Assembly: GCA_045862955.1 (NCBI GenBank)
Contig: BTVI01000027.1
Coordinates: forward strand, 1-42,711
DNA: 42,711 nucleotides
Origin: Fimbriimonadales bacterium
GTDB lineage: Bacteria > Armatimonadota > Fimbriimonadia > Fimbriimonadales > JABRVX01
Direction: 5' to 3'
Shown: positions 24,001 to 42,000 of the stretch, piece after piece
Layout of the letters: each line of letters opens with the position of its first letter
Numbering within the stretch: position 1 is the stretch's first letter
Made by a program: the position numbers

Positions 24001-27000
24001 AGCAGAGCCTCGCACCCCGAAGTAGATACCGGACTTGCGCGCGAACTCGGTGAAATCGCGAACGATGAGGAAGTAATCGCTGAAACCAGTTCGCTCGATC
24101 ACCGAGAGCTCATAGTCCAACCTCTCGCGCACCTCGTCCGGGGTGTTGGGGAACTTTTCGGCGAGGCCGCGATAGCAGAGGTCCACCACGTGCTGGTGAG
24201 GAGTAACACCTTCCGGAAGGCCCGGGCACGGGAGCTGAAGCCGCTCTGCGCTCAACTCCACATCGCACCTCTCGGCGATCTCCAGCGTTCTTTCTACGGC
24301 GCCTGGGTCGTCCTTGAACAGGTCGTACATCTCGCGCGGGGACTTCAGATAGAACTCGTTCGTGTCGAACTTCAGCTTCCGGCTTTCGTCCTTCACCGTG
24401 GCGTTGGTCTGGATGCACAGCATTACGTCGTGCACTCCGGCGTCCTCGCGCATCAGGTAGTGCACGTCGTTCGAGCAGATGACGGGGATGTGGAGCTGCT
24501 GCGCGATGCGGCGAAGATGTTCGTTGACGAGCCGCTGCTCCTCCAGCCTGTGGTCTTGCAGCTCGATGTAGTAGTTCTCGGCGCCGAAGATGTCCCGGTA
24601 CTCGGCGACGCACTCCTTACCCGCTTCGTACCCTTCGGCGATGATCTTGCGACAGACCTCGCCCGAAAGACAGGTAGAGGTGCCGATGAGGCCTTCTGCG
24701 TGTTCGGCCAGCACCGTCTTGTCTATGCGCGGGCGCATGTAGAAGCCCTCGATAGCAGCGATGGTGCTGAGCTTCATGAGGTTCTTGTAGCCGGTCCGGT
24801 TCTTGGCAAGGAGCAGGAGGTGGTGCCGAACCTGGGCCAGCTTGCCGGACTTGTTCTTCATCCCGTGCGGCGCGATGTACGCTTCCAGGCCGATGATGGG
24901 TCGGATGTCCTCCGCCTTACAAGCGTTGTAAAACTCCACCACGCCGTACATCGCGCCGTGGTCGGTGATGGCTAGAGCGGGCAGCTCTAGCTCTTTCGCA
25001 CGCCTGACGAGCTTCTTGATCGGCTGCGCTCCGTCGAGAAGGCTGTATTCGGTGTGGACGTGCAGGTGCGCGAAAGAGGACAAAGCGTGCTTCCTTTCTC
25101 GTCGTGTGAACTGGCTTGGAGACGGCGGGCCTTTGCAGGACCGTCGCGATAGGTGGTTCGACGGGCGGCCGTGGATTCCCCGTGGATTTTGCGAGATACA
25201 TGTCCAGCGTCCTGCCAGATATCGTTCATCGCCGGGACGGCGAGATGACACGTGTCTCCCGCCGGCGCGCGGAAGGGCTAGGACCCTTGACATGTAGACG
25301 CATGTCTGGTATAATAGGTCCCAGCGTTGCTCGAAGAAGGGTTTCTAGCGGTACCCCCTTGGGCGACGGACGCTGCATCGAGTGAAAACCGGGCCGGCCC
25401 GGAGATTGGGAGGCCCTCGCCGAGGACGTCTCGGCGGGGGCTCCTTTTCTTTGGAAGGGCTGGCCGGGTCGGACCCGTCCGAGCAGCTGGCAGCAACAAA
25501 GAACGGAGGCTGGAGTGCGCGAAGTAATCAAACAAGCGAAGCTCTTCGAGGCGGGGGACTACCCCGACAAGGGGCTGAGCGTCTCCGAGGAGGACCTCGA
25601 CGTGATGGCCCGTACCTCGGGCGAGGTGCCGCTGACCGTGGGCCATCTGGACCCGGATTCCGAGAATCCGCTGCGGCTGGGCACCGTGAGCAACCTGCAG
25701 CGGAAGGGCCGCGAGCTGTTCGGGGTGATTCGGTTCGCCCCGGAGGCCTGGGCGCTGCTGTTGCGATCCGGAGCGAAGTACCTTTCGGTGTGCCTCGACC
25801 GGCTGCGCAAGCGGCTGCTGGAGGTGTCACTGGTGGTGAGGCCGCGAGTGCGGGATGCACGCGTGCGATTCTCCGAGGGCGATGTCCCGGTTCGGATCGA
25901 CGTGCCGTTCGACTCGACTCTGGACGATAGGACGGGGGCCGTTCGGGCGGCGATCTACGATGCTTTCGGCCCGGAGGTATGGGTGCCCGAGGTGTACGAG
26001 GACCATGCCATCGTGGAGCGTGGGGCCGAGCTGCTTAAGGTGCCCTATCGCTTCACGCGGGACGGCGCGGTACGGCTGGGGCGCGGGAAGCGGGTCGAGC
26101 GGCGGTACGTGCCTTTGAGCGCAGAGGACGTGCGCTCACGCAGGCCAGCCGAGGGTTCGCTCTCGCAGGCCAGGCTGCGCTCCGAGGCGGAAGAGCGGAT
26201 CGAGCAGTGGCGGCGAGGGGGGCGTATCACGCCTGCTACCGAGGAGTACGCACGGAGGTTGCTGCTACACGCCCCGCCGGAGACCCGGCGCATGTTCATG
26301 GACTTCGTCGAGGCTCAGCCGGAGAGCATTCTGTTCACCCAGGTCACGCCATTCGCCATGAGCGAGGAGGAGCCGCTGCCGGAGCTGGAGCCGGCCGAGG
26401 CGGCGCTGTGCGAGCGCTTCGGAATCGGGCTGGACGAGTATCGGCGCATCAAACACAGCGCCCAGGGGAACCACCGATACACAGGAAGGAGGGCATAGGT
26501 TGGCGGCACTCACATCCGAGCGAAACCACCCCATCAAGGACGGTCTCATTGTCAGTCTGAAGATGGCAGCTGTGAAGATCTTCAAGGGTGCTATGGTAGG
26601 CATGACGGCGGAGAGCGTGGCAGGAGTGCCTGACACCGGCTACGTCACCAATCTCGCGACGGGCACGACGAACCCGATGCTCTTCATGGGGGTCGCGGAG
26701 GAGACCGTGGACAACAGCGCCGGACAAGCAGGGGCGAAGGCTATCCGCGTGCGACGGTCCGGCAGGTTCGTGTTTTCGCGATCGGGAGCCTCTCAGGCAG
26801 ATGTCGGGCGGGAGTTCTACGCATCCGATAACCAGACACTCACTACTACCTCCACCAAGAACGCGAAGGTCGGCAAGTGCGTCGGCTACGTGGACGCCGC
26901 GCGCCTCGAGGTGGACATCTCCAATTACACCTAGGCCGAACACCACGCACGGTAGACCTCAGGATCACACTCATAAAGGGGGATCATCATGCCTGTCACC

Positions 27001-39000: not shown

Positions 39001-42000
39001 CTCTGCAACACCACCGACAAGGACTACATCAAGGCGTTGCACATGTTCGTAGACCTTGCGAACTACAGCATGAAGTGGGGCTCGACCTGCTGCCTCTCCA
39101 TTGGCGGCAACCCCCTTTGCTGCTGCTACTCGAAGTAGTCCGGTAAGGCGACTTGTGATGCGAGGGGCCCGACCGAATGGTCGGGCCCCGGTTCGTTGAC
39201 TTGAGGGCCGACTCAGTTCATCGAGAGGTATTCTTCGGCTTCGGCGCGTTGGCGTTCCATCTCAGCCTCCGGGTCCACGATTGCGGGCGGGTGGTGCGGG
39301 GGGCGCATCGTGCCGAAGAAGGGCGACATCCATCCCCAGGCCGTGCGCGGCAGCGCGATCTCGCCGGGAGGTTCCGGCATAGGCAGTTCGTCGTCCTCTA
39401 GGTAATCAGCGTCGTCGAATCGAGCTTCATCTTCCCCATACATGGGCCACCTCCGAGACGTTCGGAGAAACGTCGATCCCTGACGTGCAATGGCCGAGCC
39501 AGAGCGACCCGCGCCGGTACTGGGTGTCCGGACGCGGGTCCCGCTGCGTCCGCACACAGCGCATCCATTCCGTGAGTGCGCTACCATGGTACACACTCGC
39601 TTTCCCGGTTGCGGCCCCGCAGATCGGCGAGATTTCGGCCGCCTGCAGTCGCAACCGGCAGAATTGCTTGGCCGCTAAGCGAAACTTCGAAAGCGGGTCG
39701 TGAGGTACCAGGCTCGGGGGAAAGGCTCAGGCCTGCTCGACGGGAAGTCTGCGGGCCATCCTTGCGGAAGTGTTGACATTCGGTGAATCGTGTGTTAACA
39801 TAGGCAAGTCGCGGGCCTGCGTGCCCGTGCCGAATGTTTCCGTGTTTTTCTTTGCTATTGTGCCGCTCCTTCCCGTGGATGCAAGCTAATCGCAATCACG
39901 CAAAGGAGATTGGACAATGCTCACCAGAAGCTTGCTGCTGGCCGCGTTCGTTACGGGCGCGATTAGCGTGGCGTTCGCGGATCTCTCCGAGCAGGAGCCC
40001 AATGACACCTTCCCCGGCACTCACATCGGCACGCTGAACAACGGGGAGAACATCACCGGCTCGATGACCTCGAGCGACGACGACTTTCATTACTTCGACA
40101 CGGCAGCCAACGGCTATGCCGCGCTTCGGCGGTACGTGTTCGACGTGAATGTCGATCCCGGGAATGGTGATTCGTACCTGTACATCTACGATACGAGCCC
40201 CGAGGGCTGGATCCTCGGCAACAACGACGACGTGAACTATCCAGCGGACGCAACGAGCTGGGTCAGCTTCGACCTGTTCGACTCAGGGGGAACGAACACC
40301 TGGGGCTACTACATGTGGGGCTACAACTCGTTCAACTATTGGCTGAACGTCTCGTGGTATGACCTCACGCCGACCTTCGCTGGTACGTTCGGACCCGGAG
40401 CGCTGAACATCAACACTTTCGCTGCGGACTTCGACACCGAGCTGTCGTTCTTCGACGGCTCCGGCAACTTCATCGCCTCGAACGACGACTTCAGCGGCAC
40501 GAGGTCGAATTTGGACCTGGTGCTGTCTCCGGGGCTGTACTACCTTTGCCTCGGTGGCTACAACACCCGGGATCCCGGCGATGCGATCAGCGGTGGCGGG
40601 TCGTGGGACCGCTCGGGAGCCGGTGGTGGGATCGACACCCGCGGCGGCAACTACGGCCTGAACATAGGTGGGACGCTAATCAACGGCACCCTGGCACAGG
40701 GTGACCGCCACTGGTTCACGATCGAGGTCGTTCCGGAGCCCGGCACCTACGCCGCGATGGCGACCGGCCTTCTCGGGCTGCTCGCTCTTCGCCGACGCAA
40801 GTAGTCACGGACTCTGACATGCCTGTGTGAGGCGGGGCCGAACGGCCCCGCCTCCTCACTTTGCAGCCGCCCCCCTCGTCTGCATCACCGCGCGGGGCGG
40901 CCTTTCGGTATCATTGCTCACTCGTAATGAGCGGAGAAGCCTACAAGATCGTCACCTGGGGTTGCCAAATGAACGAGGAAGACAGCGAGCAGATATCGCT
41001 CTTCCTCGACGAGCGCGGCATGCACCCTGCTGACACCATCCGGGATGCTAGCGTGGTGATCCTGAACACTTGCTCCGTCCGCGCCAAGCCCGAACAGAAG
41101 GCCTTTTCGCTGCTCGGACGCTTGAAGAAGCTGAAGAAAGAGCGGCCAGACCTGGTGATCGGAGTGGTCGGCTGCATGGCTCAGCTCAAGGGGGCGAGCA
41201 TCCGTAGCAGGGCGACGCATGTGGATTTCGTCGTCGGTACACGAGACCTGGCCGTGATCCCCGAGCTGGTGGAGCAAACGAAAGAGCGGCGAGGCTTCGC
41301 TCTGCGCACGGAGATGCCGGAGCGCAAGGGCGCCGTAGTGACCGACCTGCCCGGACGGGCTTCGGGGAGAAAGCCGAAGCTAAAAGCCTTCGTGCCCATC
41401 CAGTATGGATGCGATAAGTTCTGCACCTTCTGCGTGGTGCCGGTAACACGAGGACGGGAGCGAAGTAGGCCCACCGAAGACATCCTGCGCGAGGTTCGCG
41501 AACTGGTAGCGCAAGGGACGAGGGAGGTCACACTGCTCGGCCAGACGGTGAACAGCTATGGCAAGAACCTGCTAGAGGGCCGCGTGCCGTTCCACCTGTT
41601 GCTACGGCGACTCGCAGAGCTCGAAGGGCTGGAGCGCATCCGCTTCACGTCCCCCTACCCGAGGGACTTCTCGGACGAGCTCGTCGAGACCATTCGCGAC
41701 GTGCCGCAGGTGATGGAACACGTACACCTACCACTGCAGTCGGGTGACGACGAGGTGCTGCAGCGAATGAAGCGGGTGTACTCGGTGAACGAGTTCCTTC
41801 ATACGGTGGAGCGCTTGCGCGAGGCCGTGCCACACATCGGCATCACCACCGACCTCATCGTCGGTTTTCCGGGAGAGACGGAGGAGCAGTTCCAGCGCAC
41901 TTTAGACGTTGTGCGCGAGGTGCGGTTCGACAGTGCTTTCATGTTCGCATACTCCACCCGGCCGGGCACGAAGGCCGCCGAGATGCCGGATCAAGTGCCC

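Follow-up and report, generated by a model that had tools for sequence, protein, structure and literature searches.

A probable host-domesticated, gene-transfer-agent-like particle system with a Mu-like head in a Fimbriimonadia genome

Introduction

The head-tail cluster described here, together with a packaging locus on a second contig, is probably a phage-derived particle system that its host has domesticated; judged from its sequence, it would resemble a gene transfer agent (GTA), be induced by DNA damage and have arisen independently of the known ones. Proven GTAs stem from a few independent captures. The present system is a candidate for an additional origin, in a phylum that has been little studied, and its trigger is testable, namely DNA damage acting through a defined operator at both loci. 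What appears to be new is this operator: the same SOS-type palindrome lies in the promoters of both loci and also before recA, uvrA and a Y-family polymerase gene. The system moreover offers a natural comparison of one inherited head with and without a tail, and sister genera have a second system that is convergent with it. Random DNA in the particles would favour the view that cells retain GTAs as donors of repair templates, and should tail-less heads borrow tails, tail piracy would no longer be confined to mobile satellites but would include a fixed function of the host.

The window, i.e. the whole stretch of DNA analysed, comprises 42,711 nucleotides of contig C27 of a Fimbriimonadia genome (G000), whose assembly consists of 94 contigs. 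The sister species and the next genus of the family are called G001 and G002, respectively.

Results and Discussion

Between dnaE and miaB there are, as the preliminary description stated, 17 ORFs in one orientation. The first 16, at 25515-38067, are intact genes for a head, a gp36 adaptor, an amidase accompanied by small membrane proteins, and a tail of the non-contractile type (Table 1). The last ORF, 38350-39138, had been counted as a member, but since it has no phage match, is missing from the G002 cluster and has a dS of 0.10 relative to G001, it probably does not belong to the cluster and was rejected as a cluster gene.

Table 1. Features of the C27 cluster and of the packaging locus on C46 (dN/dS: G000 versus G001).
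Feature	Position	Strand	Evidence
sigma-70-type promoter (TTGACA, 17 bp, TATAAT)	C27 25287..25315	+	SOS-type palindrome in spacer
Mu gpI-like protease/scaffold	C27 25515..26498	+	PF10123 2.6e-4, phrog_328 6e-4 (weak); dN/dS 0.13
capsid cement/decoration protein	C27 26500..26934	+	phrog_1731 1e-24; dN/dS 0.04
major capsid protein, Mu gpT family	C27 26989..27954	+	PF10124 3e-53; dN/dS 0.04
small membrane/coiled-coil protein, putatively holin-like	C27 27956..28231	+	homologue of tail-less-module gene behind capsid
probable tail terminator	C27 28228..28683	+	size and position; dN/dS 0.20
small membrane protein, putative lysis accessory	C27 28673..28918	+	weak Rz-like spanin match 0.03; dN/dS 0.06
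small two-helix membrane protein, holin candidate	C27 28915..29094	+	sequence; dN/dS 0.03
head-tail adaptor, Mu gp36 family	C27 29091..29528	+	PF07030 7e-16, phrog_195 6e-14
amidase endolysin	C27 29525..30007	+	PF01510 (Amidase_2) 7e-31
tail tube protein, non-contractile (siphophage) type	C27 30019..30438	+	Atlas structure match; dN/dS 0.07
tail assembly chaperone	C27 30435..30904	+	stop 30797; slippery site CCCTTTT 30761-30767; -1 extension to 30904
miniature tape-measure candidate	C27 30766..31248	+	between chaperone and hub; dN/dS 0.61
baseplate hub-like protein, 738 aa	C27 31249..33465	+	Atlas features 0.98 to phage clusters incl. gpD/YqbQ
putative small conserved tail-tip protein	C27 33714..33941	+	conserved in G001, G002; dN/dS 0.09
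large tail-tip/receptor-binding candidate, 974 aa	C27 33943..36867	+	C-terminal BNR-like repeats (weak match); dN/dS 0.10
fibre-like protein, 396 aa, last cluster gene	C27 36877..38067	+	weak tail-fibre matches 0.012-0.016; dN/dS 0.11
zinc-ribbon ORF	C46 (outside window)
small-terminase candidate, 112 aa	C46 (outside window)		no HTH match
TerL	C46 16633-18087 (outside window)		phrog_38 2e-94; dN/dS 0.07
portal	C46 18098-19294 (outside window)		phrog_113 3e-70; dN/dS 0.06

The terminase and portal indeed lie apart on C46, and TerL has its Walker and nuclease motifs. The lack of an HTH match in the small-terminase candidate has a parallel in known GTAs, for which the same is reported (PMC11841831). 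The two loci amount to 15.7 kb in total, with a span of ~36 kb in G001. A cI-like repressor gene adjoins the packaging genes; its G002 orthologue is on a different contig, and it was therefore rejected as a linked prophage cI.

The label "Mu-type" holds for the protease, cement, capsid, portal and gp36 adaptor, the capsid being ~30% identical to those of cultured Mu-like phages, but not for the tail, which is of the siphophage type known from Fimbriimonadales prophages. Only the head is Mu-like, and no finding points to a transposable ancestor. The order protease-cement-gpT-gp36 is also that of Mu-like and related tailed phages (Mushu, JBD26; IMG/VR L149, L230, L259), and Fimbriimonadales prophage loci have the same hub and tip family. 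Unlike these relatives, the G000 system has no transposase, integrase, minor-head (gpF) or Neck1 gene and, short of a family-by-family search, no replication gene; its loci are split, and ~120-160 aa stand at the tape-measure position, compared to ~495-580 aa in the related phages and prophages.

Among the small head and lysis genes, the protein behind the capsid is the only one in the genome matched (4e-8) by the profile of its tail-less-module homologue (see below). The probable terminator has no family match, nor did a profile comparison match it to the stopper of that module, and the holin candidate is not found in G002. The gp36-family adaptor occurs in 4 of 41 genomes, 3 of them in the family of G000.

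The tail tube has an Atlas structure match of TM 0.78 to Phage_tail_2/TP901-1-family tubes, while the structures predicted for the tube (pLDDT 34) and the hub (pLDDT 38) are too poor for use. PF06199 missed G000's own tube and is thus uninformative on tails in other genomes, and the alignment of this tube with viral tubes (13-17% identity) is too poor for genome searches. In the chaperone gene, the heptamer and the -1 frame peptide are kept in G000, G001 and G002; we take the frameshift to be of the lambda G/GT type, and its conservation argues for a tail that is assembled. The tape-measure candidate has 160 aa from its first start and ~123 aa from the GTG at 30877, about a quarter of the length of its related-prophage counterparts. 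Within the order, 36 of 228 genomes have the hub family; its profile found no solved structure at E<=1 in a PDB sequence search, and scans of metagenome and viral contigs gave no relative. In related prophage loci, too, the 974-aa tip gene comes after the hub. The cluster contains neither a sheath nor a toxin gene.

We now turn to the selection acting on these genes. All 16 are open in G001 between the same flanking genes, in line with the earlier claim of intact genes at the same place in the sister species. Purifying selection is likewise borne out: dN/dS is 0.026-0.20 in 15 of the 16 genes at dS 0.49-0.98, the sole exception being the tape-measure candidate (0.61), and ten host genes give 0.04-0.15. 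With its intact genes, host-like dN/dS and fixed position in the sister species, the G000 cluster is thus, as had been stated, not a decaying prophage. The G002 copy, on the other hand, is decaying. Its genes are contiguous, but they have not been kept intact: stops or a frameshift interrupt the genes of the tube, one membrane protein, the tape-measure candidate and the 974-aa protein, and no amidase was found.

Concerning mobility genes, no rve transposase is matched in G000, as described, nor in G001, while the control is positive in 6 of 14. XerC and XerD are, however, not the only integrase matches. A third, stop-interrupted Phage_integrase match lies in an unlinked decayed island (C57:11014-11475); it was rejected as the cluster's integrase. 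The PF02914 (DDE_2) search gave zero matches, controls included, and is uninformative. A large serine recombinase was not found, and neither the C27 nor the C46 locus has an rve or serine recombinase gene or a tRNA.

Domestication by the host is supported by the purifying selection, the fixed position in the sister species, the split loci, the lack of a nearby mobility gene, the host-congruent head trees and the shared host-type operator, the last two discussed below. The main alternative here is a prophage, either immobilised and in slow decay or still inducible with unassembled early genes. It could call on the interrupted G002 copy, the capsid or adaptor genes split in two further relatives, the 6 of 41 relatives without the capsid, the neighbouring cI-like gene and the existence of closely related tailed phage contigs. 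The dN/dS values, which resemble those of host genes at a dS of up to 1, the host flanks of both loci in two species, the unlinked repressor orthologue in G002, the four loci in a single-contig relative and the congruent trees across the phylum largely refute it, and we regard it as very improbable.

The palindrome resembles an SOS-type operator of the host. The C27 box (25294-25309), inside a promoter with perfect elements, has 2 mismatches from GTAGAC-N4-GTCTAC, a degree of match shared by 63 sites genome-wide, while an exact box lies in the sigma-70-type packaging promoter (C46:16104). The exact 12-base palindrome occurs 3 times in the genome versus 0.10 expected, and near matches precede recA, uvrA, the Y-family polymerase gene, the start of a PHP-domain polymerase gene, a radical SAM gene and mraZ; lexA has no box of its own at <=2 mismatches. 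Both boxes are kept in G001 and are found in a looser or weaker form in G002. The binder could be LexA (C29) or an HTH_3-S24 protein encoded on C46. Outside the family, 8 of 36 genomes have the box in front of the head operon, against a background of ~0.011 per 400 bp; before the protease gene it occurs in 0 of 9 genomes of families f4/f5, and none of 9 other genomes has it before terS. Four RNA runs cannot show transcription, because the cover is equally patchy over cluster and host genes, on contigs of low depth.

On this basis, the following mechanism can be envisaged. An SOS-type repressor would occupy the palindrome in both promoters. Upon derepression, proheads would be made from the portal, protease/scaffold, gpT capsid and cement proteins, and the terminase would fill them with chromosomal DNA, in the absence of a phage genome that could be excised or replicated. 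The gp36 adaptor would attach a non-contractile stub tail, which carries the hub, 974-aa tip and fibre and whose length the tiny tape measure determines. The amidase and membrane proteins would then lyse the producer, and the particles would carry DNA to kin as a template for recombination or repair.

Another option is a domesticated particle with a different job, i.e. damage-induced killing or decoy, or lysis with release of protected DNA, in either case lacking productive transfer. PBSX of Bacillus subtilis, a phage-like particle that does not replicate, is induced by damage, packages host DNA and kills; its tail is contractile, that of G000 non-contractile and very short. The SOS-type operator on both promoters would suit such a job equally, as would the lysis genes, which stay beside the head across the phylum even though the endolysin family changes, and the tail-less state of most relatives. 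Killing accords poorly with a non-contractile tube and a cluster devoid of sheath and toxin genes, and the whole packaging motor and neck are strongly constrained. We consider this option unlikely.

The definition of GTAs lists six features (Kogay et al., 10.1101/2022.06.10.494566). Three of them, namely mostly random host DNA as cargo, a head that cannot hold the entire gene set, and delivery to other cells, are predictions for the G000 system; the other three are seen in its sequence. Capsid, portal, TerL, adaptor, tube and hub are caudoviricete-derived by similarity; two loci sit among host genes in G000 and G001, within the limits of a 94-contig assembly; and the head-gene trees share about half of their splits with the MiaB tree. 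By family assignment, capsid and portal belong to Mu-type families rather than showing RcGTA-like homology. Like RcGTA, CcGTA, BaGTA, VSH-1, Dd1 and VTA, the system has structural and lysis genes only, spread over several loci, with vertical inheritance, purifying selection, a shortened tape measure and a small-terminase candidate lacking an HTH match. It differs from them in its Armatimonadota host and its Mu gpT/Portal_Mu head. To our knowledge, this head lineage is not that of RcGTA. CcGTA helps DNA repair and is controlled through RogA and GafYZ (PMC9632790), while in G000 the putative SOS-type operator would sit directly on both structural promoters.

The same head lineage is found in 104 of 301 Armatimonadota genomes, mostly in single copy, and the capsid in 35 of 41 relatives, with the head genes single-copy in nearly all. 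It had been suggested that ordinary prophages may make up part of the order-wide spread. Single copies, host flanks and congruent trees reject this explanation; the spread is that of a sister module that lacks a tail and differs in its terminase and neck, and not that of the G000 cluster. This module consists of terS, terL, portal, protease, capsid, adaptor and stopper. Its adaptor gave no match to gp36 in profile comparisons, and PDB sequence searches with the adaptor and stopper profiles gave nothing significant. Head operon and module have a common ancestry, the family of G000 having its own tail, neck and terminase. In the single-contig genome G020 the head genes are split over four separate loci.

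The trees share 23/47 (capsid), 24/43 (portal), 17/26 (tail-less terminase) and 19/36 (tail-less adaptor) splits with that of MiaB, a single host marker, all being quick trees; random relabelling yields no more than 3. Of the well-supported splits, 5/26 (capsid) and 4/26 (portal) disagree with MiaB. Owing to the long branch of G000's family, a separate capture by this family is possible. The tailed form occurs in only 3 genomes, all in the family, plus 3 unplaced tail proteins. We count this, and the G002 copy with its four interrupted genes, against the GTA reading, as we do the mismatches of the C27 box, the lack of a box at lexA, the groups without the box, the conflicting splits and the long branch. 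Most relatives, moreover, have only the tail-less head, and simple delivery of DNA offers no explanation for this.

A supplier or parasite of prophages, whose heads use the tails of resident or infecting phages or disturb phage assembly, with G000's family having frozen one pairing, was also considered. The module does end in an adaptor and a stopper (weak PF05135 and PF05354 matches), the components that determine tail choice in cf-PICIs (10.1101/2025.02.11.637232), and prophage-like loci of the order carry the same hub family. The gene content of the module, without a tail, is also found in cf-PICIs; these have integrase and replication genes, no lysis genes, and package their own DNA. The G000 cluster has a tail and an amidase, and no integrase or replication module at its loci; its own short tail is complete, and matches of 403 phage and prophage proteins revealed no second phage structural locus. 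This makes the supplier quite improbable, more so than the particle with another job.

A broader version of the GTA-like reading can be put forward only tentatively. It would be an ancient, phylum-wide, host-owned capsid factory under DNA-damage control, with independently evolved gene transfer in tailed and tail-borrowing forms. Most lineages might then release sealed, tail-less heads filled with chromosomal DNA, with borrowed tails or another route of delivery; G000's family might have fixed a private stub tail, and genera g7/g34 might have swapped the head and reached the same stub-tail design. In five single-contig tail-less genomes, the tape-measure family is present in 2 and the baseplate-J family in 3, in each case at a great distance from the head loci; neither family is matched in G020 or G167. 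A contig scan with the capsid protein alone gave 7 loci, all distant. Genera g7/g34, which do not have this head, combine the same short-tail family with a head of another kind.

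Results and Discussion

The window is contig C27 of G000, a genome of 3.36 Mb in 94 contigs, and carries 17 co-oriented ORFs between dnaE and miaB. Family scans of these ORFs return a Mu-I protease (weakly), a cement protein, the gpT capsid, the gp36 adaptor and an amidase. The cluster reported in the preliminary description is real. By structure, one ORF resembles tail tubes of the non-contractile type, and a 738-aa ORF is similar to phage hubs in its C-terminal half. The chaperone gene ends in a slippery site, CCCTTTT. The three genomes of the family (G000, the sister species G001 and the next genus G002) all conserve this site and the peptide read in the -1 frame, which is the arrangement of lambda G/GT. 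Between chaperone and hub lies a single ORF of ca 120-160 aa, the tape-measure candidate; the tape measure in the corresponding place of related phage contigs and prophage-like loci has ca 495-580 aa. A second operon, on contig C46, consists of a zinc-ribbon ORF, a 112-aa ORF, TerL and the portal. The ATPase and nuclease motifs of this TerL are present. A repeat family, possibly REP-like elements linked to RAYT genes, has one copy that separates the hub from the tail gene after it in G000, and none at that place in G001.

Coordinates of features in G000 and related genomes (palindrome sites are examples)
Feature	Position	Remarks
Cluster promoter, TTGACA-17 bp-TATAAT	C27:25287-25315	palindrome inside spacer
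Palindrome, C27	C27:25294-25309	two mismatches
Tube-like ORF	C27:30019	139 aa, TM 0.78
Last ORF	C27:38350-39138	orphan, 255-262 aa, Thr/Lys-rich stretch, Cys-rich end
Repeat family	C27:33530-33650, 41939-42703	841 blastn hits, 71 contigs
Palindrome, C46	C46:16104	exact, over -10 region
Palindrome before recA	C84:2229	at most one mismatch; ca 0.2 kb upstream of gene
Palindrome before uvrA	C3:51588	two mismatches
Palindrome before Y-family polymerase	C13:65683	at most one mismatch
Palindrome before radical SAM gene	C48:11717	at most one mismatch
Palindrome before PHP-domain polymerase start	C51:19123	at most one mismatch
Palindrome before mraZ	C1:64584	at most one mismatch
Decayed integrative island (L129)	C57:10500-14000	stop-interrupted tyrosine integrase; adjoins Hsp70-like/GrpE-like gene group
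Cluster copy in G002 (L033)	7860-15400	in-frame stops in tube, one membrane gene and tape-measure candidate; 974-aa gene with frameshift and stop; head and hub genes still open
Head genes of G020 (single contig)	1.23, 1.41, 2.27, 2.56 Mb	portal, capsid, TerL, adaptor
Second-system loci of g7/g34: L379 (G416), L380, L381, L383-L386, L395, L396		rearranged, HK97-type head, same hub family, tiny tape-measure-like gene

Compared with G001 by a counting method, 15 of the 16 cluster genes have dN/dS values of 0.026-0.20 at dS 0.49-0.98, and TerL and portal have 0.07 and 0.06. Ten host genes give 0.04-0.15, so the purifying selection described earlier is indeed like that on host genes; the tape-measure candidate has 0.61. 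In G001 the host genes flanking both loci are the same, which bears out the shared location. The last of the 17 ORFs, on the other hand, had been counted as a member and probably is not one: its dS is only 0.10, with 0.5-1.0 for its neighbours, a value that suggests recent exchange or constraint at the DNA level.

That we are dealing with a remnant or a hidden prophage appears very improbable. No match to rve was found in G000, in line with the absence of a Mu-type transposase noted before, and no large serine recombinase; neither the window nor the C46 locus has a tRNA. When 403 proteins of phage contigs and prophage loci, mostly structural, were compared with G000, the structural ones matched only C27 and C46; such a set probes replication genes poorly. 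The statement that integrases are limited to XerC/XerD has to be amended, as a broken integrase, in the decayed C57 island, exists besides the two full tyrosine recombinases. The G002 copy, too, calls for a correction. Its genes form one contiguous run that lacks the amidase and in which four members carry interruptions; the interruptions may reflect tail loss under way or assembly errors. The C27 and C46 system is real and domesticated.

The two operons share a promoter palindrome, GTAGAC-N4-GTCTAC, whose exact form occurs three times in G000 against 0.10 expected. Sites with at most one mismatch number 11, one being the C46 promoter and five others preceding recA, the Y-family polymerase, the PHP-domain polymerase start, the radical SAM gene and mraZ; two-mismatch sites, of which the C27 copy is one among 63 genome-wide, also precede uvrA and a UvrD-like helicase (identified by eye). 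A set of this kind, with recA, uvrA and polymerases, is what makes up an SOS regulon. Both palindromes are kept in G001, and in G002 with three (C27) and one (C46) mismatches. No such box was found before lexA in G000, and the binder may be LexA or a cI-like protein encoded on C46, whose orthologue in G002 lies on another contig. For 10 of 39 loci (8 of 36 when the own family is set aside) the box stands at most 400 bp from the head operon, the background being ca 0.011. A look at the region before the protease gene found no box in any of nine genomes of families f4 and f5, nor was there one before terS in nine others. Judging from sequence, we consider it a candidate SOS box for Armatimonadota, a phylum of which no mention was found in the abstract starts and titles surveyed on SOS boxes.

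We read the system as a probable GTA, induced by DNA damage and independent in origin. The analysis shows the genes, their selection, the split of the loci, the palindrome that these share and the inheritance of the head; beyond these, DNA damage would relieve repression of both operons, heads would fill with chromosomal DNA and receive a stub tail, and the producer cell would lyse, delivering DNA to kin. Of the six GTA features in Kogay et al. (10.1101/2022.06.10.494566), three are found here, and a head too small for all of the element's own genes (the two loci total 15.7 kb), random packaging of host DNA and delivery to other cells are possible further ones; the system is therefore a candidate and not a member. 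We lean moderately towards a GTA-like function of the particle and think it unlikely that the particle has another host use. CcGTA supplies templates for repair, and its control runs through RogA (PMC9632790). Like known GTA small terminases, which lack a DNA-binding domain according to PMC11841831, the 112-aa small-terminase candidate gave no HTH match; terS of the tail-less modules in other families has an N-terminal part matching small terminases. No prior description of the system was found in the literature covered (abstract starts, most subscription papers being outside the scope), and PMC8597652 tabulates, among incomplete prophages, a region of 7.1 kb from a Fimbriimonadales MAG that is labelled 'portal; head; capsid'.

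Related heads are widespread. Among 41 genomes (G000 included, G036 counted in these tallies only), 35 have a capsid match, 36 a portal (one weak) and 34 Terminase_6C, nearly always single. The TerL of G000 finds only five of them and its gp36 four; TerL of other families is phrog_2, versus phrog_38 in G000, and their adaptor, which is not gp36, is present in 31 of 41 and followed by a stopper-like gene (weak matches to PF05135 in 2 of 21 members and to PF05354 in 4 of 21). In the phylum as a whole, 104 of 301 genomes give a match to the capsid profile, and several families have the capsid in all or almost all genomes (6/6, 15/16, 8/9, 18/19). Most of 20 loci inspected show parts of terS-terL-portal-protease-cement-capsid-adaptor-stopper-holin-endolysin amid host genes, without tail genes; the G061 locus is of a different type and that of G293 lacks a neck. 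Profiles were run for tube and hub, and other tail types may occur: the tube is found in 2 of 33 genomes, both in G000's family, and a broad hub profile in 2 of 32 capsid-bearing genomes outside it (one weakly) and in none of five further single-contig genomes. In cf-PICIs, tail-less capsids are released, and adaptor and connector select the tail (10.1101/2025.02.11.637232). Head genes that cooperate with prophages, or interfere against them, are a rather improbable account of our system.

Genomes of family f32 (G138, G154, G283, G268) each carry several complete copies of the capsid gene; the two loci of G138 resemble tail-less modules, with cement before protease and no terminase near. Among IMG/VR contigs, L230 has the C27 layout with no Neck1, a short tape-measure-like gene and a capsid near to that of a different Armatimonadota family; it may represent one more domesticated form with a tail, classed as a virus. 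The low-GC contigs L241-L258, L273, L296 and L307 have related portal, capsid and cement, after which come numerous repeated genes of medium size; neither a tube nor a tape measure is obvious in them.

Capsid, portal, tail-less TerL and tail-less adaptor trees have 23/47, 24/43, 17/26 and 19/36 splits in common with a MiaB tree, compared with at most three under random relabelling, and well-supported conflicting splits number 5/26, 4/26, 3/17 and 1/17. These are quick trees against one host marker, leaving out G036, the second G138 copy and two split capsid genes. The capsid and portal of G000's family are on long branches, and phage contigs are placed among host capsids; a union of the family with the other members of the order was not recovered in the portal tree, nor was it rejected (p-AU 0.21). 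The small membrane gene behind the C27 capsid is homologous to one in the same place of the tail-less module (4e-8), and this private link, together with the shared operator, favours common ancestry of tailed and tail-less heads. The tail may be a gain of G000's family or may have been lost in the others.

Homologues of the hub are present in 36 of 228 genomes of the order, and some of them sit in prophage-like loci whose tape measure is long. The gpT capsid is absent from genera g7 and g34 (g7 0/6, and G322). In both genera the hub belongs to rearranged clusters that also have a head of HK97 type, a gene of 80-170 aa at the tape-measure position and host flanks; their hubs form one clade, and three of the loci have the palindrome. 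These clusters are a second GTA-like candidate by gene content, and the fact that one stub-tail design and one operator go with two different heads speaks for a function.
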